Shown in pieces: positions 1 to 20,100 of a DNA stretch of 64,000 nucleotides; position 1 is the stretch's first letter; the number at the start of each line of letters is the position of its first letter. The notes under the pieces are model-generated. The model had not been told where the DNA came from, did no database searches, and worked only from the letters and a program-made list of their open reading frames with translations. Source of the stretch: Azolla caroliniana (taxonomy: Eukaryota > Plantae > Polypodiophyta); the NCBI GenBank assembly GCA_043228905.1, contig JBHGNT010000012.1, forward strand, positions 4,588,001 through 4,652,000, in the 5' to 3' direction. The translations under genes and the position numbers were made by a program.

Positions 1-179
1 GCCATTGAGGCTCTTGAGTTGACATTGTAAATAGGGGTACCTTTTTCCATAAGTGAAGAAGCTTTTTCCTTTTCTTGTTCACAGTATTTGGGGAACCCTG
101 CATATTATCCTACTAGCCACGGACTACTGCCAACAAGTTTTCCCATATCTCAAACAGCACATCTAAGAGATGAATGTCT

Positions 180-1330
180 ACCGCATCATAAAGTCGGTTA
201 CATCGATATTTCCGTAATGTCCATAACGTTATTGTGGTCACTATTTTCCAAATTTGGACTGATCACACATGCTTTCGAGGTTGCTCTAAGGGACTGACTA
301 ATATCAATCTTCTATTATGTATTGTCATTGCCTCATGAACATCGTTTGCCTCATACAACATCAAGCTAGAATGTAATACTCCCCACATTGCTAATCCCCA
401 TAAGAATAGGCAACCTACATTGATTGTTAGGAATAAAGACATGACTTTCTTCCATTCTTGTTGAGCAAAAGAACAAGACCATAGGACATGCTTGGTAGTC
501 TCCTGAGGTTCATGGCAAAAGCCACATTGCCGCAAATTGGGTGCTACATTCCCTTTCAATGAGTGACCAACTGGTAGTGCCATATGCATTAATAACCATC
601 GAAAGAGAATAAATTTAGTTGGCCCCTTGAATGACCAAATCCATTTCTAGTAGGTTCTCAAATGCAAATTTGAGACACCCCAATTGGTCCAATGTTTCTG
701 AGTTGCTGGTATCGTTACATTCCTAGACAACAATAATGATCTTTCAATTTTTACTAAGTACTAAAAGAAGGGGACCTTTACGATCTTTTCCCCGAAGGAG
801 TGTGACCAAAGCCAACCCACCAGATCCCATGTTAATCTTGCAACAAGATCTTTTGTGTGTAACCATAGGATATCACACATATGAGCAATTGACAGATAAG
901 GATCAAGGATCCATTTCTTTCCAGTTTTAGCAACCACGCTGACTGGTGCACTTCACAAGTCCTGTAGATAACTGCAATCAAAGGTATAAGATTGCAATCT
1001 ATTGTTGTCGATGACCTCAAAATAAGAAACGCACCCATTAGGTGAAACGCCCTTAACAACCATCAATGTATCATTTGTGAAGCATCCAAACCATAGATGT
1101 TCTTACCTAGGTTGGAAGGTTATAAAAAACGAAGAATATGTTGTTGATAAGGTAGTCATCATTATCTTGGCACCATGAACTAATTGTAGATGTGCAAGTC
1201 GATCTTCTAGTGACATTTGTTGAAATTGAGTCCAAGTTCTTACAGATGCAGCTGGCCCATTATCCAATTTACCCCAAGCAAGGTGAGTTCGCAAGCCCAA
1301 TAATTTTCCTGCATTATCCCGAAATAGAGA
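180..1330 (-). mobile_element. Degenerate L1-type LINE ORF2 3' fragment
   Basis: ORF 263-589 contains CGFCHEPQETTKHVLWSCSFAQQEW, the C-x2-C...ET..H...C zinc finger (zf-RVT) typical of plant L1 ORF2. Neighbouring broken minus-strand ORFs lie at 832-1300. Boundaries approximate. Confidence 0.65.
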
Positions 1331-3520: not shown

Positions 3521-6500
3521 TTAGAGAGCAGCCTCCAACACTGAATTTGGAGAGGTGGAGTGGAGCTTGGGATCTTCATTAGTTATAAACTCATGATGTT
3601 GTTGAGACCAGGAGGGAAGCTTGATTGCATAGGGTGAGGCACTGCCAGCGCCAGCCCGGATACCCACGTAAAAGCTCGCATACATATTCACTCTGTCCAT
3701 GTACTTCTCACTGGTACTTAATCTCACCACTGCCAAAGAGCATAGCATATACAATGAGTGACCATGATCTTTGATTGACACATGCCACATATATACATGC
3801 ATACATATGCCAGAAAGCATATACAAATGAGTGAACATGATCTTTGATTGACACACCACATACATACATGCATACATATGCCAAAAAGTGAGTGACCATG
3901 ATCTTTGATTCACACATACCACATATATACATGAATACGTACATCATACACAATACTACACACTCTCCAAACTATGAGAGAAAATGAGTGATAATGAAGT
4001 TGATCCACAGTATATAAACACACATATGATGTGGCATGAATCTTTGGTATGAGAGTGGAACTATTTCATTTTGTTACCGTGGAAGCCAGATTTCTCTATG
4101 CATCTGGCATAATCTGGACATCTCGAAGCACTCCTCCAAATCACGCGACCACCCGGCTGTGATCCCGACAATGCAATATAAGAGAAATAAGAACAACCAT
4201 GGCATGCCCTCAAAAAAGGAACAAACATTGATAGCTTATTTGCTTACCAAAACTTGGTCCTTTAATGCAGAACAGAGGATATCGATGTCTTCTTGATCCA
4301 ACCAGTCAACATGGTCCATCAAAATGACCTGGTCAAAATTACAAAGATTCCCTTTGATAAGGGTACTGGAAAATGGCTCATTTATCTATCTACCGCAGCT
4401 TTGAATAAGAAAAATAGCAATTTGGGTTCTACCTTCGTGTATTTGCGCTTCCTCAGCTCATCGACAAACGATCCAGTACAGATCAACAGTCTCTGATCCT
4501 TTGCTAACTCCTCCTATGAATACATAATGTAATAAGTATGAACATAAAAGGTGTGTTAGATAAAAGCAAGTATGAAAATAAAAGGTGTCGTCGATAAAAG
4601 CAATTCACACCTTGAGTTTGTTAAAGCAATCTTCTTCCAAGAATCGAGGGCAACAAGTTCGTGCAAATTTTCCCGTCAAGCAACAACGATAGAAGTAGTT
4701 GCTGCATGCGATTATAATTTTTACCACAATTAGGATTCAACACACAAATAAATACCTTTCAAAACGGTGATCTTGTCATTATGTAGATTTAGAAAAGACT
4801 TATCATATGAATCCATTATCACCTGTCCCGTAGATGAGAATGCTCCGCTGTAGAGTTGAGACATCGAACCACATAGCTGTCCAAGGTCATCAAAAGACAT
4901 GAACTCCATTCTTCTCAAGGCATCCGAATTTAATGAATAGTGCATGCATGTCTAATACATTGACTAGGTTTGCTGTTAGTCAAGCCTTTTTTTGAAGTGC
5001 ACAGTAAGAAAAATTTGTAGTATATTGATATTTCTCCAACAATGAGGGTTCAAATTCAAGCCTATACGGATGATACTATGAAGCACTAACTTGTATATGT
5101 TATCTTCTTTTTGGATTAGCTTAAGTTGACCCCGGCATACTCCAGCACAAAACCACAGGACAAGGCGATTGGTCACAAGGAACGCAAATAATCTAGTAAT
5201 GATGCTTGCTTGTAACAAAAGTCTCCCAACAGTTGCAAACCTACAAAATTTTCAGGGATCAGTCAGCTCCAGAAAAAACTGAAGAGACAGGAATTAAAGT
5301 TTTGAATTATTGGGATTATATATAAATATACCAGAGCTCCTTTTGCTTCTCCAAAGAGGGAGCATTGACCAAGCTTTCTATCCAATGCTCCTGTAAAAAT
5401 TTGGACATGTTAAGAAATCAAGATAAAGGTTTGGGAGGATTTACATAGGAAATAGAAACCACCAGTCACCTGGCGCATCACCCTTGCAAGAAACTTCACA
5501 GCTCGAATCAAGCGTCCCATTCCTCCTGTACAGTTTCAATATGAATCAGTAATTGTGTGCTGGACCATTATCCCCCCCAAAAAGCATTTACTTTAAACAT
5601 CATATAAGAGACCCAACCAATATCTAACAAAAGTATTTTCTTACTTCACTGAAGAACTTCATAGATCTCACATACTTAAAATAAAATTCTTAGGTTTAAA
5701 ATATATGTGAACATGAGGAAGTGGTGAAGAGCTTGTGCTTTGTTGTGCTGAACAAACTGGTATAAGTAGAATCTTAAAAAAAGGTAAGTATTCAAATATA
5801 GGTGTTGGGAGTTACCATGATAGTAGAGACCATTTTTGAAGTAATAAGCCTTGGTGTGCCTGAGGAAATGTTGAAACCATTAGTAGTGAAGAACTATTAT
5901 CTTATCTACTGCCTGTGGAAGGAATAAAAGAAGAAGAAGAAGATAAATTACCAAAAGTTAGAAGCTCCTTGACTTAAAAATGGTGCCAGCTCTGTGTCTA
6001 GCAGCTTTCCAAACTTGGGGTGAATTCCCTCACCAAACATAGACCACACATCTGCAAATGGCAACCTAACAAGAAATTTGACAGTCTATTAGCAAATACA
6101 CAAAGATTTCAATTTCTGAGTGATCTAGGAATATCTATAGCATCATGATTTACCTCAGAATAGCTACCCTTTTGAGTTCAAGAAGGTAGCTTTGAGCAGG
6201 GTTGATATCAACAGAAACCACCAAACCAGCTCCCTGTAGAGAGAGCATTTGCAATTTCTAAATACTAGTTCATGTTCTGCATCTACTGTATACACACAGA
6301 TACATACACATATGCATACATACACATACTTGCGTATGTATATACACATATATACCTACACCATAGGGTTATATATATATACATGTGTGTGCGTGTGTGT
6401 CACACCTGATTAATGAGATCGAGGGCATTGCAGCCTCCTGAAGTCAATGTGAGGACAGTATCATGAGGTTGAACTTCCAAGACACCTTCATCTACTCGAG

Positions 6501-7844
6501 GATCTTCCCATGACAAGGAATAGAGGAAAGTAGGGGGGAATTGAGCTGGCCTTCGAGCATCAAATTCATCAGAGGCTCGAGCAGGGAACCGAGATAAATC
6601 CGTTCCTAAAAGATGGAATAAATCTCACAATGACAAAAGTGTTTTTTCTTCTCGACCAATAATCGGCAAAGAAGAACAAGGTAAGAGAAATGAGAGATTC
6701 TTCACACACTTGGATAGTCATGGCGATGTCCGATCCAGACATAGAAAGGAGCCTCCACAATAGGAAGATACGCTAAGTGCTCAGAACCATTATATTCGAA
6801 TGCTAGGAAGAAATAGAGGAAGAAGAAAATGAATGAGACCCACCACCAAAGATAAACTGTCTTGTTAGTAGAAAAGAAACTAGATTAACTTTAACTATCG
6901 CTCACCTGCTTCGAGCTTATGCTCGAGGTATTGCCTTCTTTCTGGACCCACATCATAACCAGTGTAATCAAATGCTGCCCTCCATAGCCATCGGCAAACA
7001 TAGGAATGCTGCCTATTTTGCAGATCATACTTCAAAGAAGTGAAGTAATCCACAACTCCAACGAATCCATCCTTGGAAAGCATGGAAATGGTGCTATCAA
7101 TGACATACATAAAGTCTCGGATTCCTGAAAACATAAAAATAAAAAAAAACTTATTTTAGACCCTCAATGATGGATAATTTTGCTATGATTATAGTGCTTC
7201 TACATGTCCTTCCCTTATGTGCAAAAGCAAATGCACATAAAAGAATTTAGCTACAATGAATCATATGAAGCTTATTAGACTCATAACCAAGGTAAATTAA
7301 TTATGTAATGCTCACAAACCTAACCCAGGTTAATTAATTCTATTAACACAGACATACTTGAGAGCGAGTAGGAGAAAGTGACAAGAGTCACCGGGGAGCC
7401 CGAACGAAAATCTGAAGGATGGCTATCGACTTTCTCAACATTACTCCACCGGGTTCTCTCTGTGCTTATGAATTTCTTATTTGAGTTATTCGTCTTCTTG
7501 ACAAAGCAATTGACGATGTAGATCTTGGAGAAGCAAGAGATGTCCATGAATTGGGACATTGCGAGCACATTTTTCTCGGACCCATCTCCATAGTCCACCC
7601 AAACAGATCCGGGCCCGCAGTTCCTCTTCAGGCGAGCAGCACAAGCTGCGAAGAGACAGTCGGATGCGAGCAAGGACTTCTGAGCTGAAAACAAGAAGAA
7701 AAGATATCAATGTCATTAGAGATCCATCTCTATCTCTCTTTATCCCTCCAGGCATAGTGTAAGTAGTGGGATTCATTCTTTTTCCCCCTAACTAAATTCA
7801 TAGTAAAGAGAAAACAAGAAAGACTCCATCTCTAAAGATATCAT
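3521..7844 (-). CDS. BTA1: Betaine lipid (DGTS) synthase BTA1-like: N-terminal BtaB-like methyltransferase fused to BtaA/DUF3419, ~662 aa
   Basis: GT-AG exons read by hand, all phase-compatible: 7793-7844 (tentative first), 7358-7684, 6906-7124, 6710-6802, 6406-6605, 6154-6233, 5952-6065, 5816-5859, 5470-5525, 5332-5390, 5091-5240, 4823-4876, 4611-4701, 4433-4513, 4248-4328, 4078-4156, 3521-3729 (1989 nt). Motifs matching algal BTA1 as recalled: TFSYSL, GPERRQYLEHKLE, FPPTFLYSLSWEDP, DTVLTLTSGGCNAL, VDINPAQSYLLELK, NYFYRCCLTGKF, VILMDHVDWL, PGGRVIWRSAS, YMDRVNMYASFY. Start codon uncertain. Confidence 0.92.
3745..3942. repeat. Intronic minisatellite, ~3 units of ~65-73 bp
   Basis: Repeated core GAGTGACCATGATCTTTGATTGACACA...ACATATATACATGCATACATATGCC in the last BTA1 intron. 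Confidence 0.85.
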
Positions 7845-8020
7845 CCAGGCTCGATCTTTGAGTTCCGGAATCTTTAAGCTCCTGAAGTGAAAAAGAGCAG
7901 TACATTGCTATACACTAAGAACAAGTGGAAGCAGGAATTGATCTCCCCAAAGGAAACGCAGGAATTAAACAAAGGCTTGATCCGTGAAGAGAGCACAGAA
8001 GAAACAGAGAATTAACTTAC

Positions 8021-8283
8021 AGCGTTTATGGCTGGAGAACATATTGCTTGGATTGGGGTTAAAAAGTTGTAGCAGAGAAGAGCGCCCCTTTCTCTGCTAC
8101 AACTCCTTTCTTCTACAACTACCACTTCTTCTTCTTCTTCTTCTTCTTCTAAGAATGAGATTGCAGGGTGCAGAGCTAAGCCGAAGCTGAGCTGAACTAA
8201 ACTCAACGAATGCTGAGCTTCAGAATCAGCTCTGTCGATCGGCGAGTGGAGTATTTTTTTGGCTATGGCGACCTTCTTATATA
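8021..8283 (-). promoter_or_regulatory. BTA1 TATA box and non-coding first exon
   Basis: TATATAA on the minus strand at 8277-8283. GAA-repeat leader ends in a strong donor (gct|GTAAGT at 8020); acceptor ttcag at 7882. Confidence 0.6.
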
Positions 8284-8382
8284 AAAAAAAAGAAATTAGA
8301 AGAAAGCAATAGCAGACAAACGAAAGAAGAAAGGAGAAAGAAAAGGGAAAGCAGAAAAAGCAGAGAGAGACAGAGACAAGAG

Positions 8383-8508
8383 AAAACCGCTTTCCTGACT
8401 GAAACCGCTTCTGTCTTGGAGGGGAAATGTAGTTTAGTTTAGTTGAGACTGGGAGACATAGAGATAGAAAAAAACCGCTTTCCAAGTGGACGTATGGAAA
8501 GCGGTTTT
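8383..8508. promoter_or_regulatory. Cluster of four AAACCGCTT motifs, including a perfect 14-bp inverted repeat
   Basis: Copies at ~8384, ~8402 and 8471, plus an inverted copy at 8495-8508 (AAAACCGCTTTCCA-N10-TGGAAAGCGGTTTT). Confidence 0.55.
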
Positions 8509-8614
8509 GCGTTTGCGTTTTGCTTTTGCTTTTTCCCCTCTTTTCAATATAATAATTAATAAAGTAAATAATAATAATAATAATAATTAAAGAACGGCTT
8601 CCTGACGCCACGGA

Positions 8615-8622
8615 GAATATCC
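8615..8622. promoter_or_regulatory. Candidate P1BS (PHR1-binding, GNATATNC) element
   Basis: GAATATCC about 330 bp upstream of the BTA1 TATA box. Short motif; function inferred only from context. Confidence 0.4.
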
Positions 8623-9689
8623 ACCTCTTTATTCAATTAAAATTAATTAACAAGATAAAGCACGATGCTACTACTACTACTCCCCAAGCAAAAATAAAAA
8701 GATTTGAGATTGGAAAAAAGAAAAAAGAAAAAGATCCCAACTTTTTCTTTTTCTGTTTGCTTTTGCTTTTAATTCTGATTTCTTTTTGAGTTTTTTATAT
8801 TATTATTTTACAAATAAATTAGGGTTTTTATTTTTATTTTTTAGTTTTAGTTTTTAGGGGCTGAAAGGGTATCTTGGAGAAGATTCCATCGTCAAGATGC
8901 GGAATCCAACGTTTTTGGATTCGAACCAATTCCCATCATTTGGCCTCCTCTTCACAGCATATCTCCCATAATATACCCAACTATACAAACCAACAAACAA
9001 TAATAATGATGAGACTCTCGCTCTCTGTCCCATCCATTGCCTCCTTAGGGCCACACGGCCCTTCGCCACAAAAAAGCACCATAAATGAAATGGCACTAGA
9101 AGCACGAGCTCAATCAGACACACACTCATCCCATTATCACTACTATTCGTATAAGGCACACACACTCTTACACCACATGTACACACACCATACCCCCCCC
9201 CCCCCTTCCTCCCCTCCCTCACACTCACACCCAATCTCTTGATTCCCAATCCATCAGATTGACCAGCTTGCTGCTATATGTTCGATCCTTCATCTCCAGA
9301 AGCTCCCCCCACTCTTTATGGTGCTCGACTGCCAGGATCCTTTGCAGTTTGTGTCCTCTTCGGAATTTCGAGGGATTGTGTAGGACACTGCTTCTTTGGG
9401 TTGAGTTTGCAATTGATTCTTTTGACATTCGTCGAGAGTATGCAATGAAAATGTTTTGCTCTGTTTTTGAGCTTTTGGTGAATCGTGTGATGAAAACGAC
9501 ATCGGTCAATAATCAAACACGGTGGGGATAACTTCTATTTCTTGATGATATTGTGTTATTCTTACAAATTTTGGATGATATGCAACACTTACTTGATGTA
9601 TTAGAAACATTTTATCGAATTAGGGAGCTAATTCGTCATGTGGACAAAATAAAATGATGGTAATAAAGGCAATACAACCAAGACACTAC

Positions 9690-10400
9690 CCCACATACAA
9701 GGCAGAACCAATACAAGTGGTGCAAACCTTCAAATATCTTGGTATTAATGTTCCATAGACAAATAGGTGGAATGTATGTTACGAGTCTAAACTTCAAGCA
9801 GGTTGGAATAAGCATTACATGTTTGAGAATCAAGGCAACCATAGTGATAATAGAGTATGGGAAATGAGATTGATGTTATTCAATGCTATTGAGTGGAAGT
9901 GTGGGGTGGCATTATCTCACTTAGTACATGGAATGAAATAGACAAAATCCAAAAGTTGTTCTTACATAGACAATCGGTTGTAAAATCCTCAACATTGTAC
10001 CTTGTCATGCTAATAGAAATAAGTGATCCGTTCATAGAAGTAGCCACTCAAAGAGTATACAAGTATAAAGCAAAAGCCAAAAATATGCTTCATTGTATAT
10101 TGCCCAAACTTACTTGGAACATAGGATGCAAGTTACAGAAAACTAAAAAGAGAAAAATCTTCTCAGGTATGAAGTGTGTTATCATTGAGGAAAGATTAGT
10201 GGAGCATGATGCTAAAATGTCAAAATTGGAATATTACATTGAAGACAAGGTAAAAACTCCAAAATGTATCCAATCACATCTTACTATCCCCATAAGACTT
10301 GGCTATCAAAGGGCCTTAACACTTCGTCGAATTCATAGTGGGGAATGTTGTTACAAGTCAAGATGACAAAGATGTTAAATTTGTACTTATCAACCAGTCT
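9690..10400 (+). mobile_element. Degenerate RTE-like LINE 3' fragment
   Basis: Broken reading frame with post-RT LINE-like text (KYLGINVP..., EVWGG...TWNEIDKIQKLFL...) including ORF 9893-10366. Boundaries approximate. Confidence 0.55.
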
Positions 10401-10657
10401 CAGTCCTTGTCCATGAGCCGATACCCATGAATCTACCCCTCCTTACCAATCCTAGGATAGACTCTAAGAAGGTTCCACACCTCCTTAACATTTTCCCCTG
10501 TTTTTACCACAATTACATTACACACCCCACCCAACCCCCTTATTTTTTCTTTAGCTTTCCACCCTTACAGAATCCCTATTTCCTTGAGTCTAAAGCCTAT
10601 GTTTTCTCTCTTTTCCGTCGCCCTCATGTTCTCCATGTTGTGGGGCTCTCTTTCCGT

Positions 10658-10740
10658 TGTCGCGGTAATCCGTGAGTACGTGTCGAAAAGGGGCGGGACC
10701 ACGGGGGTCTTGGACTAGGGAGTAGGAGAAGGGAGAGAAG
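10658..10740 (-). mobile_element. 3' end fragment of a gypsy (tRNA-Trp family) LTR
   Basis: Reverse complement reads ...AGACCCCCGTGGTCCCGCCCC...GGATTACCGCGACA, the LTR-end module also seen at 23193 and 26598. Flanked by CCGT. Confidence 0.75.
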
Positions 10741-10769
10741 CTTGGGAGTTCAACCGAGAAGGAAGAGAA

Positions 10770-13700
10770 AACAACGTGACCATCAATGAGGAAGAAATGG
10801 TGCAGGTCTATCTAAGAAGGCTAGCGTCTAGATTCAGATCATTCCAAATGGTGGTTTGCACGAGAGAGATATAAGTCGTCCTTCTTCAAGTTGTAGTCAA
10901 TGCTTCTTGTTGAAGAAAATCATGCGTGTGCATCGACAAGCACGCACGCACGGAGGCGGATCAGCCCCATGGTCATGTAGGACGAGGAAGGTCGGCAGGC
11001 AATGGAGGCGGCCGATAGGAGCCGAACTAAAGGCATAATAGAAATGCCAACAACAGTTCCAGACCCTAGACGAGTAAGGGGAGTCAAGGCGGCACTGAAA
11101 ACTGGCAAGGGAAGACCGCGACGAACTACTAGTACTATGGGTGAAAGGGCCACACATAGAGCGAGTGCTGGAAGAACGCGCCCATTTGGACCGAGCCTGA
11201 TCGAGTCAGGGAGACGCAGATAGGCATCAAAGTTTGCACTACATTGAAGGCTCAAGGCAAACTGGAACAGGCCCAACCTTCATGATGAAGCACAAAGCCA
11301 ACTCGATGGCGACGAGCACCTCGAAATCAAAGTAGGTATGATATGTGGATTCTGGCGCATTGAACCATGTCATGATGAACCATGAATAATGGTTCTCTTA
11401 TCTCGAGAAGCCAGAACAGTCGGGGGTCGTCGAAACCAGTGATGACACCCCTCATCCCATATAGCACATAGGAGATGTCCCTCTGAGCCATATCAGCCAG
11501 AGAGGAATAATGAGGAACTTCCTGCACTTCTTGACGATCACCAAGAACCTGGTGTCAGTCAGAGAGATCATCGACCAGGGGATGCAAGTTACGTTCACTC
11601 ACCTAGGGTGCTTCATCGAAGAAGAAGGTCGAATTATTGTGCAAGGGCACCGAGAAGGGAGGATGTTTATCCTCGAGATGAACACTATCAACACCCCTAT
11701 GTTCATCAGAGGGTGGAAGGTCGAATCAGATATCAACCTGTGGCACAAGCAGATCAGCCACGTGAACTTCCCACGGTCTCATGAGATGTAGACAAAGAAC
11801 ATCACTTTCGACTTGCCGAAATTCAATGGTCGGAGGGGCTAAGTCTGCGAAGCCTGTCAGCTTAGGAAGCAACACCGACTTCTATTCCCCAACGAGCAGA
11901 ATCAGAGCCGAAATAAGCTCGATTTGATCCATTCAGATGTGTGGGGATCGGTGTAGAACATGAGCATCGGTGGTAGTCGTTTCTTTGTAAGCTTCATCAA
12001 TGACTACACTTAGCATACTTGGGCATCCCTGATCAAGAAGAAGAGTGAAGTCTTGTCTTGTTTCTTGAAGGTGAAGATCCTTGCCAAACGAGAGACTGGT
12101 CGAAAGATCAAATGCCTCAGGACCAATGGCGGAAAAAAGTACTTTTCCGATCAGTTCTTAAGCTATCTATAGAAGGAGGGAATTCAATACAAATTCTCCT
12201 AGACTTACATGCCAGAGCAGAATGGGGTGGCTGATCAGAAGAATCGAACCATTGAGGAAGCGGCAAGGGCAATGCTTCAGGAGAAGCATATGTCGAAGTT
12301 TTACTGAGACAAAGTGGTCAGGATGGCTGTTTACTTGTAGAATCAGACATCTGCAAATGGAGGAGTGTCTCCACATGAGCTGTACTTTGGGAAGAAGCCG
12401 AATCTAGCACACTTGAGGGTATTCCAAAGCATGGCATACGTGCATGTGTTGAAGGAGAAGCAGAGGAAGCTGGACAACAAAGCCAAGAAATGTATCTTGG
12501 TTGGCTACTTGGATGAACAAAAGGGTTATAAATGCTATATAACCCTCGAACGAAACAATTTCGAGTTAGTCGAGATGTTGTATTTGATGAGTCAGCTTTT
12601 GTGGTACTTGCCTCCATCTCTGACCCCCATTAACTCCATTCCAAATTCTGAGGATGAGGCAAGTGATGCAGAGATGCCCTGGGATGAAGAAGAAATTTGG
12701 AACTCTAGAGGAGAGTCTGATCTCATTTCGGCTAAGTGGACCAAATGAGGAGCTAAGCTGGAATGGCTAGCCGAATGAAGAATCAGCGAGTAGTGGAGAC
12801 TCGGTTGTGCAATCCCTGCACCAAAAGTCAAGGAGACGACTTTCGTGCAATGAGAAGGGGAAAATGAAGATGTCGGAATACGGTGTCGTGTAACTACGCG
12901 TACGTGTAAGGAACGAAGGTAGGACCGTAGGGGTCCTGGACCAAGGTGTGTGTGATAAGGGGAAAGGTGAAACAACGAGTGCGTGTCGAGCAAGCGTTGT
13001 ATGCCAGCAAGCACAGAACTCGACCGCAAGCGTTGGATGCCGGCTAGCATAGAGCTTGACCGGCTCAATCGAGATTAGATCGATGCTAGAGACAATTAGA
13101 AAAGGAAGAAACCCTCAATCAATTAAGAACGGATTACAACCGGCTCGCCGGTAACCAAGCCACTACTCAATTGACAACACACACACACACACACCAAATA
13201 CGAGATACAACGTGGAGCCTCTGTCGGGAGCACCCGGGCTTCCCACATGAATAGGGGCGTCCGACAAAAGAACTCCTGCAGAGAACACCGATACAAAACG
13301 AGCGCTCGGTCCCCAGCCCGACAACACTCCGTTCTCCCCAAAAACGCGATATAATCTGAGCCCTCTCTACCAACTTTTATAGGTCCCCAAGGGAGGATTC
13401 ATCACATCCTGTAATTACCTCATCTTTATTCTCTATCACTTCGGACAAAGATTCGTTTTGATTTGTTAATGTATTTAATGTGTCTATATCAAAGTTTGTC
13501 CACATCACGCCGACCTATTCTTAGACTATGTGCAAATAATTTACAACCGTGTGCATCCGTGTATGTTGTGGTTCATGCGCTCCGGTCTTCTTTTCTGCTC
13601 GTAGCTAGTTTCCCTTACGACAACGACACAAAGGCCGACGCATCGGACCAGAGTGAATCCAATGCGGCCAGGAGCGAAGATGGACATCCGGAAATGAGGT

Positions 13701-14040
13701 CGTAGTCGGCCAAGAGGGCCATGAAATCGGTGAATCAGAGGTTGCACCGATCCACCTGCCAAAATAACCTCGTAATACAATATGGGTACAATGAATATAT
13801 GGTGCACCACTATGCGTATATGGCGAAGGTGGCAGAAGTGCCAAAGCCGGCGAGCTACATAGAGACGACGAAGGACGCAAAGTTGGCAAGCCGCTATGGA
13901 GGAAGAGATGCGCGCATTGGCGGAGAATGAGGTATGAGACTTGGTTGATGCCCCCAAGGGAGTGAAGCCGATCGGATGCCGGTGGGTGTACAAAGTGAAA
14001 TACAATGTTGATGTCTACGTCAGCCGGTACAAGGCCCGAT
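10770..14040 (+). mobile_element. Degenerate Ty1/copia internal region (family A: gag end, protease, integrase, start of RT)
   Basis: WYVDSG-like protease, LWHKQISHVN, IHSDVWG, KKCILVGY, KPIGCRWVYKVKY, with many stops. Homologous to 17124-21152 and interrupted by a solo LTR. Confidence 0.9.
12884..13622 (-). mobile_element. Solo LTR of the gypsy tRNA-Trp family
   Basis: TGTCGTG...TACGACA termini; flanks ACGG/ACGA (4-bp TSD, 1 mismatch). The copia frame resumes after it. Confidence 0.85.
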
Positions 14041-14661
14041 TGTGTTTTAAAAACCATGGGGTTGACACATGAATGTCTTTCCTTGATCTCTATATCGATT
14101 TTTTCATGGCGGCTCCTCGAGGCTCAACCATGTATGTGTCATGAATAGTTTATACACGAAAAAAATGTTAACACTAAACTATGTTTCTGTGCCCACGTAT
14201 TTGGTTTCGGCTCTATGAGGACCTCGAAGTGCACTTAGACCTAAAGTCTAGACATGTATTATAGTCATATGTATCAACAATGTTGTATGGTCTTGGTCAT
14301 ATTTGAACTCAAGACCTCGAGAACAAATGCATTAAACACTTGAGCTAACCAAATAGGTTGCTCGTGTTGAATGTTTAACATTTTATGTGTATAAGAAATA
14401 TGTGAGGCATTTGCCGATATATGTTTTTTTAAAAGAAACATATATGTCTAGAGTCCTTATTTCCCTCTTGTTTACCACAAACTATGTTGGTACGTTACCT
14501 AACCTCAAGTCTCATGATTACGATGGCATACGCCAAAGTGCAACCTAATGGTCAAGCCAAATGAGCCCTCTTTTCGTAGTAGGCCCACGTGGCCCATCAC
14601 ATGGTTACGTCATTACGAATGTCTTTCGTAAGAATGATCTCATGGTGGCATCGTATCCATA

Positions 14662-15739
14662 TGTTGAGAATCAAGCTCAACTTGGTCTAGTGTGTGAACT
14701 CACCTTGAGAGTGAATAAACACTCCAACGGTGTCGCGTTGTTACGCGCGTGCGTGGAGAACAAGGCGGGACCACTGGGGTCTTGGACCGAGGAATAGGTG
14801 AGGAAAGAGAGAGAGAGAGAGAGACGCTCACTCACGTATAGACAAAGAAGCGCACGAGGACGCGGCACAACAACACAGGAGACACGAGTTGAGAACACTA
14901 GAGTATGTATGTAAATATAGGCATGTATTTGTATGTATGCAGACGACTCAAACGGTTACAGCCGATCAGGTCGGCGAGGTGGATGCCAACGCCTGATCAC
15001 CCACGCACACAGGAGAGCAAGATGGAGATTCTGCCGGAAGCACACGGGCGTTCCACGGAGCAGAATCAGCCTCCTGAGAACCTGTGCAAAAGAAAGCTAT
15101 GGAGAACGACAGAGAAGAAGAGCTCGGTCCCAGTCCGACAGCACTTCGTTCCTTCTAGCGCGCGCTATCTTCTCTCCCCCGTCTCCCTCTCTTTTATAGC
15201 TCAAGGAGGGAGGTCGTTTCACCCGTTTACATCACATTAATTCTCTGTCCTTTCAGACAGAGATACTCCTCGATTTCCCCTATAGAATATTGCTACCTAG
15301 GATTTATCCTTTGTGCCTACCTATCTACTATACGACAAGGGATGTGCCCACGTGTAAGGGCCGGTTCACACACACTATACACGGTTTGCGCCTGGGGACG
15401 GTTTTCTTCACGACAACGGTCAAGAGTCACCATTAAGTCACCTCTTTGTATTCTAGCATTTAGTATGAGTCATAGAATCATATTCTATGACACATAACTT
15501 ATGAGCTTTCACATTCCCCATGCTCCATGAGTCTCGTAGTTAATGAAGAGAGAGGGTGACTACATAAAGCACCCTCCTCCCACCTTGTATAATGTTTTTA
15601 AGTCTTTCTCCTTTGTTAATATACTCAACCTTGCGTATACTTTGTGTGTGTCTCTCTCTCTATCTCATACACACACACACACACACACACAGTTCACACC
15701 TATTCCGCTTCACAAGAATCCATCTCTTGATTCTTTACA
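14662..15739 (+). mobile_element. Solo copia LTR (family C)
   Basis: TGTTGAGAATCAAGC...CTTTACA with 5-bp TSD CCATA. Homologous to the LTR at 55173-60925. Confidence 0.9.
14731..15415 (-). mobile_element. Solo LTR of the gypsy tRNA-Trp family nested in the copia solo LTR
   Basis: TGTCGCG...CACGACA with perfect 4-bp TSD ACGG. The empty site CACTCCAACGGTCAAGAG is visible at ~55232. Confidence 0.92.
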
Positions 15740-16119
15740 CCATATAATGAGGGAGGGATGTTGGATATGTGTGTCCTAGGAGCGACCTCACATGAAGTGG
15801 GTCAACCCCTACATTATCAACATCATTGTGGCTATAAGCATTTCATTACATAACGAAATCGAAGTGACCAACGGGGATGTCAAAAGAAAAATTGTTGAAA
15901 AAAGGATGGTGACTACGCCATTCTCACAAAAATGTGAGGACGGCCACCAAGATCCTTTCCCCGAATATACACATACAATATAGAAATCACATAATAACTA
16001 ATATACACATGTGTATATTTATCACATATATATGATCAAATACGTATACATGTGACCGCATACGCATATAAAAAAAAATCATAATATCAAATAGCCAACA
16101 ATGATGTAATCAAGATACG

Positions 16120-17123
16120 TAATCAAGGCATATAGCCTCTACGCACACAAAACATCCAAAAATAAGGGTTAATCATAATACGAAATTGAGGTATTGACCT
16201 CTTACGCATACGACACTAAACACATATCATTTACATAGAAATCGAGGTATTGACCTCATACGCATATGTAACATTTGCATGTGAACGTAATATGCAATTG
16301 AGGTATTAACCTCGTATGCATACGACATGAATCACATATCAAATATATATCAAATGAGGTATAGATCTCATACACATATGAATATGTTTCATACAATCAA
16401 TCCATTACCACTACAACATCATTGAATCAATAAAGAAAAAACATATTGACTATACATGATTAGATTGGGAGAAGAAAGAATAGAAAAAAAACAAGAAAGA
16501 GTTACCGAAGTTCGTTTGTCGATAGCTATCTGGATCAAGGTCGACCGCACGTCGATTGATCACCATCCATCAAGAAGACAAAAACCAACAAAAGAAACAT
16601 TAGAAACAATAGCTCTGATACCAACTATTAGAGTGATGTTCTAATGTAAGCATATGATAAGGAAAAAATATATATGAAATAAGAAAGGAGGGAGAGAAAG
16701 AAGGGTGTTGATCCACTCGACCACCCCCGAGTGAAGGGATCGAGATGGACTCGAGCCTCGATCAGCGTCCCATACCACCGTTGTGGCATCGAGTTGTACC
16801 TGGTGTTGGCATGCTCGCTACGAGAGTTGACCCACCACAAGAACAGAGTCTCGACGTCTAGTCAAGAGATGATGAAATGAGGGTAGCTAGGCCTCATATT
16901 TATAGTGATACCCAAGGCCCCCAGGCAAGTTCACACTTGGCCTAATGGGTTGTCTCAATCCCGAGGATTAAAAGTAATCCTCCCCTTCTTTACACTCTTG
17001 TTTAACCCTCACACTTATCCACGTGTATAGAATACTACGTGTATAGAATACTACGGTCGTGCTAATTGTCTCCGAAGGTTTTGAAACCAAATAATGAATT
17101 GTGGAATAGTCTGATGGGCTTCT
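16120..17123 (-). mobile_element. 5' end of an old minus-strand LTR element (partial LTR, tRNA-iMet PBS, repeat-containing leader)
   Basis: GCTCTGATACCA (reverse complement of TGGTATCAGAGC) at 16612-16623 abutting an LTR-like end. ~57-bp tandem units with GAGGT-N4-ACCTC at 16183-16380. Confidence 0.6.
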
Positions 17124-20100
17124 TGTTGAGAGACAAGCTCAACATTCGGTGCGAAGTACGTAGCGTAACCCAGTGCGTAGACTGGGTGCGTGAAAAAGTA
17201 CGCACAATAGGGCCGCATCGGTGTGAAAACCGAAGAGGCTGTTAGAGCGTTATTCCTCGTAAGGGAATAATTTTGGGAGTTTTTGTAGTCGGCTCATTTA
17301 TGAGCATTCAAGTACTATCAGTACTTGTGTTAGCCCGATTGTCAGGGCTTGTATATAAGGTGCTCACTGAGCATGAAGTATGTATAGAACAGAGTCATTA
17401 TTTTTGAATATGATCTTTCTGTTGTTTGCTCTCCATCTCCATCTCCATCTCTGCGTTTTCTGTGTTTTACCGAATTGTCTTATTCCTCCGAACTGTGTAC
17501 TCTGTGTTTACACACACGCTTCTGCACAACTTATTACTTTACATGGTATCAAAGCGTGAGGGTTGAAGTCCTCTGCAGCTGACAAGAAAAGTTAATGACG
17601 AAATAGAGTTGAAGTTGTTCGTGTTCGGAGAAGAAAAAGATAGTACTATGGACAGAGGAATGGGAAGCTCACTTCCGTTTGAAAAGCTTGACAGAAGCAA
17701 CTACGCATCTTGGTCTTACAAGATGCACCAGTACCTGCTCGGCCATGGCTACTGGAGTTATGTCAAAGGGGCAAACGATGTGGCACCCGACTCGACACAC
17801 CGGGACTATCCGGCTTGGGAATAGGCGGCAAGCAGAGTGTTGTACTGCTTCGCGTCCTGTGTGAGCGATCAGCTTTTGAGCTATATTCAGGATGCCAAGA
17901 CGTCGAAGGACGCATGGGCGAATCTCAAAAGGATTTTTGCCACCAGCACAACGGCTAGAACGCTGCAGCTTAGACAGGAGCTCAACAATGTACGACAAAG
18001 AGATATGTCGGTGGCTGATTACACCACCAAGATCAAAGAAATCTGCGACTCTCTCACCTCTGTCAACGTGAACGTCGAGGAAGATGAAATGGTACAGGTT
18101 TTTCTTGGTGGTTTGGCGTCAAAGTTCGGACTTTTCCGAACGACAGTTTGCACGAGGGAGATTACGCCTTCATTTTTCGAGCTTCAGTCAATGTTGCTCG
18201 TAGAAGAAAACCACGCGGGTGCGTTGACGAGTGTGCACGCCGATGGCAAGATGCTTTACATGGAGGATGATAGGCCCCGTGGTTGTGGTGGACGAGGCGG
18301 ATTGGCACGCAATGGAGGCGGCCGAAAAGAGCAGAATGTATGACATAATCGAGATGCCGGAAGCAATTCCGATCCCTTCGCAAGCAGGGGGAGTCATGGC
18401 GGCGCCGGAAGACGACAAAAGAAGACAACGCTAGATTGCTGGTACTGTGGCAAGAAAGGCCACAAGGAGAGCGAGTGCTGGAAGAAACAAGCTAACTTGG
18501 ACAAAGTTGGACCAAGCGGAAGAGACGCAGGAAGGTGTCAAAGATCGCACTACGTTGAGGGCTCCGAACGAGCCGGAAATGGAATGGTTCTTGTACTTGG
18601 AGAAACCGGAATCACAAGGAGTGGTCGAAACAGGGGACGACACTCCGCATACCATCGAACATGTCGGCGAAGTTCCTCTCAACCATGTCGGGCAGAAAGG
18701 GAAACTCATGAACGTGTTGCACATTTCGACAATAATGAAGAACCTTGTGTCGGTCAGTCAGATCGTCGACCAGGGAATGTAGGTTCGATTCATGCATCTC
18801 AGTTGCTTCATAGAAGAGCAAGGCAAAGTAATCGGGCAAGGGCGTCGTGAAGGGAGGATGTTTATCCTCGACACTAATCAAGCTGGAATTGCGTTGTACA
18901 CGAAAGGACAAAAGGTCGAATCGGATATCGACCTGTGGCACAAGCGGTTTGGCCACGTAAATTTCCCATGGCTTCGTGAAATGCAGACGAAGAACATTGT
19001 TTTCGGGTTGCCGAAATTTCGTGGCCGGAATGGCCAAGTCTGTGAAGCCTGTTAGATGGGAAAACAACACCGACTTCCATTCCCTAATGAGCATAATCGT
19101 AGTCCAAGTCCGTTGGATTTGATCCATTCGGATGTGTGGGGTCCGACACAGAACGTGAGTCTCGGTGGAAGCTGTTACTTTGTAACCTTCATCGACAACT
19201 TCACTCGACACATGTGGGCATGCATGATTGAGAAGAAGAGCGAAGTCTTCACATGTTTCATGAAGGTGAAGAGCCTTGCGGAAAGGGAAACGGGGCATAA
19301 GATCAAATGCCTACGGTCTGATGGCGGGAAGGAGTACTTCTCCGACTAGTTCACAAGTTATCTACAGAAGGAGGGAATTCGGCGCAAATTCTCATGTAGA
19401 TACACACCGTAGTAGAACGGTGCGGCCGTGCGGAAGAATCGGACGATTGAAGAAGCGGCCAGGGCAATGCTTGAAGAGAAGCATATGCCGAAATTCTATT
19501 GGGCTGAAGCCGTGAAGACAGTTGTCTACATGCAGAATCAGACTTTTGCTAATGGAGGAGTGTTGGCACATGAGCTGTATTTCGGGAAGAAGCCGAACTT
19601 GGCACACTTGAGGATCTTCGGTAGCATTGCATATGTGCATGTGCCGAAGGAAAAGAGGAGGAAGCTGGACGCCAAAGCCGAAAAGTGCATCTTAGTCGGC
19701 TATCCAGACGAATAGAAGGGGTATAAATGTTATAACCCCCGAACAAAGGAAGTACGCGTAAGTCGAGAGGTCGTGTTCGACAAGTCCGCTTCGTGGTACT
19801 TGCCTTCACCTCCAACTCCTCATGACTCCATTCCAAATTCTGAGGACGATGTTCGCGAGGCCGAAATGCCTCAGCACGATGAAGAAATTGGAGCTCTGAG
19901 AGAGAGTCCGATCTCATTTTGGCTAAGCGGGCCGAATGAGGGGTTGGGCCGAGATGACCAACCAGATGATGAGACGGTGAGTAATGGAGACTCGGCTGTG
20001 ATGTCCCCGTGTAAAGAACCGTGGAGACGGTTTATGTGCAAGGAGAAGGGGAAGAAGAAGACGTTGGAATACGATTTCGGTAGTGCTGAGTCAGTTCGAA

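Follow-up and report, generated by a model that had tools for sequence, protein, structure and literature searches.

A fern betaine-lipid synthase with a degenerate methyltransferase domain and a stand-alone methyltransferase as its candidate partner

Results

The 64,000-nucleotide stretch of Azolla caroliniana DNA analyzed here (the window) carries on its minus strand a fused BTA1 gene, in which a pseudo-BtaB methyltransferase domain precedes a BtaA (DUF3419) domain. The coding sequence (3521..8042, 17 exons, 652 amino acids) shows full-length homology to an ortholog, P0001, and runs from an ATG at 8042-8040 to a TAA at 3523-3521. Its frame contains no stops and no frameshifts, and all 16 introns are of the GT-AG type. 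The coding part of exon 1 (8021..8042) comprises 7 codons and one base. Exon 2 (7358..7684) encodes the degenerate SAM-binding half of the methyltransferase, including Asp41 (7586-7584), Asn66 (7511-7509), and His96-Pro97 (7421-7416), and exon 3 (6906..7124) encodes the C-terminal half of the fold; Arg117, a Met in canonical proteins, is split over these two exons. Exon 4 (6710..6802) contains the end of the methyltransferase fold (the beta-6/7 hairpin) and the start of the linker, and exon 5 (6406..6605) the linker and the start of DUF3419 with the motifs YSLSWEDP (6522-6499) and LTSGGCN (6447-6427). The remainder of DUF3419/BtaA is encoded by exons 6 to 17 (3521..6233), which were assigned by homology: exons 6 to 11 at 6154-6233, 5952-6065, 5816-5859, 5470-5525, 5332-5390, and 5091-5240, and exons 12 to 17 at 4823-4876, 4611-4701, 4433-4513, 4248-4328, 4078-4156, and 3521-3729, with the motifs VDINPAQ (6212-6192), ILMDHVDW (4325-4302), and DRVNMY (3697-3680).

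An initial annotation of this DNA had reported an N-terminal domain with intact frame and splice sites and six motifs, all of which were recovered on the minus strand: AACAARL (7649-7629), VDYGDGSEKNV (7598-7566), IYIVNCF (7523-7503), VDSHPSDF (7430-7407), TFSYSL (7379-7362), and GPERRQYLE (6948-6922). Four of 20 runs (X1, X2, X5, and X6) were aligned to window positions 6420-8125. Contigs from X1, X2, and X6, which belong to three studies, are spliced, extend to position 6420 in exon 5, and confirm introns 1 to 4, including the 8021/7684 joint between exons 1 and 2, so the reads of these three runs represent transcripts; the X5 contig over the same region is unspliced. The other 12 introns (5 to 16) are based on GT-AG boundaries and homology to P0001. 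X2 differs from the window at 5 positions in all, 4 of them coding and all 4 synonymous, and hence the aberrant codons are present in transcripts and do not stem from misassembly. X1 contains two transcript versions of this region, one nearly identical to the window and the other close to X6, which suggests homeologs, a hybrid, or a mixed sample. A cryptic exon within intron 1 was ruled out because the contigs jump from 8021 to 7684, and a tblastn search for a remnant of a lost N-terminal exon, using five N-termini against window positions 7685-20000, returned chance matches only (best E 0.21).

Two to three imperfect direct repeats of ~60 bases each lie in the last intron of the fused gene (about 3760-3910). 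Inspection by eye revealed a broken reverse-transcriptase/zinc-finger remnant at about 1-1350 on the minus strand, presumably LINE-like, and decayed integrase-region remnants with stops at about 11300-12600 on the plus strand, which we take to be Ty1/copia-like. A weak site, GNATATNC (8615..8622), which we take to be P1BS-like, lies 573 bases upstream of the ATG at a background of 0.3 per kb; another P1BS-like site (L004:5568-5575) lies at -144 from the ATG of the stand-alone gene described below. As a signal, these two sites were discarded, being near background (0.3 to 0.4 per kb).

In both domain trees the window protein is nested among fused streptophyte BTA1s, that is, it is a land-plant BTA1 ortholog of the fern group. 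In an alignment of 65 proteins it belongs to a group of nine fern-clade fused proteins, together with two from Adiantum nelumboides, one each from Adiantum capillus-veneris and Ceratopteris richardii, and four Logan proteins (three clusters). The named fern orthologs thus come from three Pteridaceae species, and the four Logan rows were placed by the tree alone. No further fern lineage appeared among 32 matches in a search of 50%-identity representatives, and no fused BTA1 of Psilotum was found among the matches listed. P0047, a canonical fused protein with no firm place among land plants, could be from a hornwort or an early fern; for this reason we limit the claim of degeneration to the ferns examined and do not extend it to all ferns.

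The lesions of the methyltransferase domain are not specific to the Azolla gene. About 40 N-terminal residues, which form the N-terminal helices of the family, are absent from all nine fern-clade fused proteins. The first coding exon of the fused gene, with its 7 codons and one base, compares with 118 bases, including the equivalent of a catalytic Tyr, in a stand-alone paralog elsewhere in the genome, and in both genes this exon ends in a phase 1 intron. Within the remaining domain, eight substitutions (G79D, T81S, D131H, A132P, M152R, F178Y, I208Y, and G232E in Marchantia numbering) occur in 9/9 fern-clade rows and two more (D104N and P154R) in 8/9; the Asp at the end of beta-2 is kept in one fern-clade ortholog cluster (P0001, P0203, P0204). 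The changes at mapped sites occur in none of the 28 other fused green-plant BTA1s. The canonical forms that the initial annotation had given for the three altered motifs (VDLGGGTGENV, IYVVDLC, and VEADACQF) agree with the alignment. Its description of the SAM site as degenerate needs one qualification: in motif I of the window protein the middle Gly is replaced by Asp41, the Thr by Ser43, and the next Ala/Gly by Glu, but G40 and G42 of the G-x-G are both retained, so the loop is altered and not abolished. Asp38 and the FSYSL strand are also retained. Two further lesions, the missing N-terminal helices and a Met-to-Arg replacement following beta-4, had not been noted there.

Conserved columns lost in all nine fern rows amount to 15/89 in the methyltransferase and 0/135 in DUF3419 (Fisher p=4.5e-7). 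The remnant keeps 54 of the 89 methyltransferase columns, and the window protein itself 62. Exon 2 of the window had no methyltransferase Pfam match at E<=0.1, while the corresponding exon of the stand-alone paralog matches PF13649 at 5.7e-6. The DUF3419 half of the window protein, which had been described as highly conserved, retains all 135 conserved columns and is 78% identical to that of Marchantia (287/369). It is the only DUF3419 locus that the genome search returned, all six PF11899 matches lying within this gene, and the intact domain likely still makes DGHS.

The lost residues were interpreted with the bacterial phosphatidylethanolamine methyltransferase PmtA. AlphaFold models were obtained for two stand-ins, the fused ortholog P0001 (pLDDT 88.9, pTM 0.91) and the stand-alone protein P0005 (pLDDT 88.1, pTM 0.85). 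Among 48,161 chains, the best match of the P0005 model is PmtA 8YS9 (Z 21.5, rmsd 2.6, 199 aligned; next 19.9). The degenerate domain of P0001 is modeled with a class I methyltransferase fold over residues 9-212, in the BtaB-BtaA order, and aligns to 8YS9 with Z 16.9 (rmsd 2.8, 177 aligned), a score within 1 of those for other methyltransferases; the helix after beta-2, present in the P0005 model, is missing. A direct search of PDB sequences with the stand-alone protein gave no match, but the family profile aligns to 8YS9 starting from residue 4 (E 2e-7). The residue map given below rests on this profile alignment (13% structural identity) and on motifs rather than on a ligand-bound model, and the position of Asp99 was set by motif since there is a two-residue offset there.

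In PmtA, Tyr10 is essential to catalysis, Tyr17 and Arg29 bind the SAM carboxylate, Asp73 contacts the ribose, Asp99 and the Ala100 backbone contact the adenine, and Trp13, Phe21, Val121, and Trp172 form the head-group pocket (PMC11446283). The equivalents of Tyr10, Tyr17, and Phe21 are deleted in all nine fern-clade fused rows and present in all 28 other fused rows, and that of Arg29 is found in 0/9 versus 28/28. The equivalent of Asp73 is Asn in eight of the nine fern-clade rows, those of Asp99 and Ala100 are His and Pro in all nine, and the Val121 position, occupied by Met in the family, is Arg in all nine. In the window protein, Ser15, Asn66, His96, Pro97, and Arg117 replace Arg29, Asp73, Asp99, Ala100, and the family Met, respectively; Gly53, the His117/Ser120 positions, and Trp172 are retained. 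The intact SAM-binding and catalytic residues that characterize the BtaB domain of type-B BTA1s are therefore missing from it. From these replacements we infer that methyl transfer has probably been lost in the N-terminal domain of the window protein, with the fold predicted to be kept.

Rates estimated on one fixed topology (LG+G4) set the fern domain apart. The methyltransferase/DUF3419 rate ratio is 1.0 outside ferns, compared with 4.7 on their stem and 3.1 in their crown, and the SAM-binding half is the fastest part (6.2 and 4.2 on the stem and in the crown, respectively). The polymorphism count used 40 of 78 difference rows, of which 8 intronic and one 5' UTR difference were removed to leave 31 coding differences. 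Of these, 26 are synonymous: 17 synonymous versus 4 nonsynonymous in the methyltransferase domain (146 and 478 sites) and 9 versus 1 in the linker/DUF part. The resulting pN/pS of about 0.07 for the methyltransferase domain is a rough figure and not a codon-model value, since the counted rows were selected by support and combine four related runs. The pseudo-methyltransferase remnant is under purifying selection and does not evolve neutrally. The N-terminal domain of the window protein thus has the properties of a pseudo-enzyme domain, a fold kept under purifying selection whose catalytic residues are gone. An unexpressed gene with both domains evolving neutrally, which the initial annotation had considered, is at odds with this selection and with the spliced transcripts.

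A genome search with exon 2 of the window revealed one clear paralog (E 1.6e-13), a stand-alone BtaB-like gene on another contig, C2 (G000:C2:16569712-16574357). Its four GT-AG-joined exons (C2:16569712-16569829, 16570096-16570431, 16573539-16573760, and 16574239-16574357) encode 264 amino acids, a single methyltransferase domain (class of ~240 to 275 amino acids) that ends in a stop without DUF3419. The intron phases match those of the fused gene, and the canonical SAM motifs and the N-terminal helices are present. The protein keeps 101 of 108 conserved columns and has the canonical residue type at every mapped PmtA site. When exon 2 of the C2 gene is compared with L019, genomic DNA from a close relative (about 90% DNA identity), 15 codons differ synonymously and none nonsynonymously. 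Stand-alone and fused domains differ by at least 75% fixation in each group at only four columns.

Searched with the canonical Marchantia BTA1, the genome yielded two loci only (17 matches), C2 (residues 10-251) and the window (56-676). A canonical full-length paralog, for which the initial annotation had advised looking, was not found in the PF11899 and Marchantia BTA1 searches; what the genome contains instead is the C2 gene, an old streptophyte paralog and not a recent duplicate. Because the genome search scored first-look candidates only, a further BtaB or BTA1 copy could be missed. A weak match on contig C8 (E 0.8, with a stop inside) was rejected as a further paralog, as tblastn showed nothing. 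No DUF3419 was found in the 80 kb around C2, and NCBIfam yielded no BtaA/BtaB model. A GT at the ancestral donor position might join the C2 gene to DUF3419 exons, but this is improbable: no such exons were found within ~60 kb downstream, and the orthologs read through with the same tail. Stand-alone orthologs with this short tail are present in Pteridium, Psilotum, Adiantum, and Ceratopteris, with transcripts in Pteridium and Psilotum, the Ceratopteris gene being KP509_1Z048000, and Ceratopteris richardii and Adiantum capillus-veneris each possess the same pair of a degenerate fused and a stand-alone gene.

Stand-alone methyltransferases of ~250 to 275 amino acids were found in Pteridium, Psilotum, Adiantum, Ceratopteris, Marchantia, Riccia, Calypogeia, Sphagnum, Ceratodon, Mesotaenium, and Chara. 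In a careful 31-row tree they form one clade (96/89) that is sister to the fused streptophyte domains (96/88), and the fern pseudo-domains are nested in the fused streptophyte clade on a stem of 0.95 (100/100). A quick 64-row tree agrees, with support of 83 for the stand-alone clade with Chara and 93 without it. Since the stand-alone gene thus belongs to an old streptophyte clade that extends from Chara to ferns, it did not arise by a fern-specific fission. A fern-specific duplication or fission, enforced by grouping fern fused with fern stand-alone domains, was also rejected by the AU test, although only modestly (p-AU 0.035) and with a long branch in play. The position of the stand-alone clade and the AU result together indicate that the redundancy is old and that, among the named land plants examined, only ferns exploited it. 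Mosses, liverworts, and Zygnematophyceae contain a complete BTA1 together with the stand-alone copy. The 120 matches listed include no stand-alone copy from a lycophyte, a weak indication that the group lacks one; in Diphasiastrum complanatum, two fused BTA1 paralogs (P0036 and P0051) were seen, both with canonical motifs.

Eroded or truncated proteins were also observed elsewhere. Three Logan/JGI proteins (P0144, P0166, and P0170) are fused BTA1s in which erosion of the N-terminal methyltransferase domain has gone much further; in the DUF3419 tree they make up a separate, apparently algal clade (SH-aLRT 100) that falls outside the Klebsormidium-to-land-plant group, and their erosion is therefore independent of that in ferns. 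In Chara braunii, whose stand-alone enzyme is P0043, a DUF3419 protein of 468 amino acids (P0137, CBR_g36906) lacks the first ~150 methyltransferase residues; of the 39 conserved columns in the remainder it retains 33. P0137 could represent another split or an incomplete gene model.

Discussion

DGTS is a phosphorus-free membrane lipid that is found, among other ferns, in Adiantum capillus-veneris. In the sources consulted, BtaA is described as making DGHS and BtaB as methylating it three times, while eukaryotes use one bifunctional BTA1, and this bifunctional DGTS synthase is described as inherited by mosses and ferns (PMC10685587, PMC8752610, PMC9892843). The type-B BTA1, with an N-terminal BtaB and a C-terminal BtaA domain, is known from Chlamydomonas, Chlorella kessleri, and Marchantia (PMC8752610; bioRxiv 10.1101/2024.07.11.603045). 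According to the latter preprint, the Marchantia fused BTA1 alone yields DGTS in tobacco, and the primers it gives correspond to the two ends of P0128. Both PMC8752610 and PMC10685587 report DGTS from ferns, and a title cited within PMC12524838 concerns DGTS in Salvinia natans. Among the searchable supplementary sequences of PMC8752610 are those of Selaginella and Physcomitrella and none from Ceratopteris, Adiantum, or Azolla. A literature search, mostly without subscription papers, turned up neither a degenerate fern BTA1 nor a plant stand-alone BtaB.

We consider it probable that the two Azolla genes divide the pathway, the fused protein making DGHS as a BtaA whose N-terminal domain is folded but dead, and the stand-alone C2 protein methylating DGHS to DGTS. 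DUF3419 of the fused protein would transfer the aminocarboxypropyl group from SAM to diacylglycerol, the attached methyltransferase domain is predicted to be catalytically dead, and the C2 paralog would carry out the three methylations. The initial annotation had envisaged an N-terminal pseudo-enzyme that needs a partner methyltransferase, and hence a split pathway in a land plant. This proposal gains support from a candidate partner in the same genome, an intact BtaA domain, and a remnant that is transcribed and constrained. The split is likely a conserved subfunctionalization of the fern clade, by which ferns would have returned to a bacteria-like two-enzyme pathway. As the trees suggest, a duplication among streptophyte algae would have turned the methyltransferase half into an additional, stand-alone gene, and bryophytes and Zygnematophyceae would have retained both the complete BTA1 and the copy. 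In a fern ancestor, a burst of change may then have stripped the redundant fused methyltransferase of its N-terminal helices and SAM contacts, after which it would have been kept as a structural domain.

The stand-alone protein may have another main job, since it coexists with a complete BTA1 in mosses, liverworts, and Zygnematophyceae, and it resembles PmtA as much as BtaB does. It is conceivable, if unlikely, that the fused N-terminal domain is dead while the stand-alone enzyme acts mainly on another substrate (phosphatidylethanolamine, its methyl forms, or a lyso-lipid) and some other enzyme methylates DGHS. The retention of the paralog alongside complete BTA1s since before Chara, as well as PmtA being its closest solved fold, would fit such a role. 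However, the stand-alone proteins are nested inside the BTA1 methyltransferase tree with only four group-fixed differing columns, nearly all conserved columns (101/108) are retained, and the genome search found no other BtaB-like locus.

That the fern N-terminal domain is still active with a rewired SAM site, so that the fused protein makes DGTS alone, appears quite improbable. The G-x-G core, Asp38, and the fold are retained, the domain is under purifying selection, and the substitutions are fixed across ferns. However, the stretch that carried the catalytic Tyr together with the two residues anchoring the carboxylate is missing, and the aspartates for ribose and adenine have been replaced; the Pro abolishes a backbone NH, an Arg occupies the head-group pocket, the model has no helix after beta-2, and the domain evolves 3 to 5 times faster than DUF3419 in ferns only.

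DGHS as the sole end product, which the initial annotation had also entertained, becomes less likely given an intact, strongly constrained BtaB paralog and the DGTS reports from ferns (PMC8752610, PMC10685587). A pathway that ends at, or accumulates, unmethylated DGHS as a functional lipid would suit a fused enzyme predicted to make DGHS only, and separate genes would permit separate regulation, but against the constraint on the intact partner and the fern DGTS reported in PMC8752610 we regard it as very unlikely. A decaying pseudogene or a sequencing artifact, for which the lesions themselves and nothing more would speak, is scarcely credible for an open 652-residue frame with 16 GT-AG introns, spliced contigs in three of the four runs, 26 of 31 coding differences synonymous, and the same lesions in named fern proteins.

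If the pathway is divided between the fused and stand-alone proteins, the question is why the dead domain was kept. Packing against BtaA is the plain reading, and lipid hand-over or docking the bold one. The substitutions fixed in all ferns examined (G-to-D, D-to-H, A-to-P, and M-to-R) could mark a new function rather than decay. Tentatively, the pseudo-domain might have been repurposed beyond scaffolding, as a module that holds DGHS or serves for docking and passes this intermediate on to the stand-alone enzyme, with the DGHS-to-DGTS step as a control point. Under such repurposing the SAM side would have been lost and the lipid-facing half kept (the RQ..RW.WR..FD helix, the PmtA Trp172 equivalent, and the terminal hairpin), the pseudo-domain would have gained the residues that are fixed in all ferns examined, and the split would be a step on the path by which seed plants, the sister group of ferns, lost betaine lipids.

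If the two-gene reading is true, ferns, the last DGTS lineage to precede seed plants, rely on two genes, and an overlooked stand-alone BtaB has long been present in streptophytes. This would change how DGTS capacity is read from plant genomes. It would also supply a synthase that naturally makes only DGHS, and a methyltransferase separable from it, as tools to dissect or engineer membranes that spare phosphorus, and the stepwise loss of betaine lipids in seed plants would become testable.

Bacterial PmtA 8YS9 (PMC11446283) is the closest solved fold for both the stand-alone protein and the pseudo-domain, and the functional residues described for it map onto the family; since PmtA acts on phosphatidylethanolamine and not on DGHS and shares 13 to 14% identity, it serves here as an active-site map only. 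With the type-B BTA1s the window protein shares the domain order, and it is orthologous to them by both domain trees, but it lacks ~40 N-terminal residues, has its SAM and substrate residues replaced, and is predicted to be monofunctional instead of bifunctional. Comparable in organization are BtaA and BtaB of Rhodobacter sphaeroides, described in PMC10685587 as two polypeptides for two steps, as predicted for ferns. Unlike the bacterial pair, the fern split would be secondary, derived from a fused gene and an old paralog; the two Azolla genes lie on different contigs, and the BtaA partner still carries a vestigial BtaB domain.
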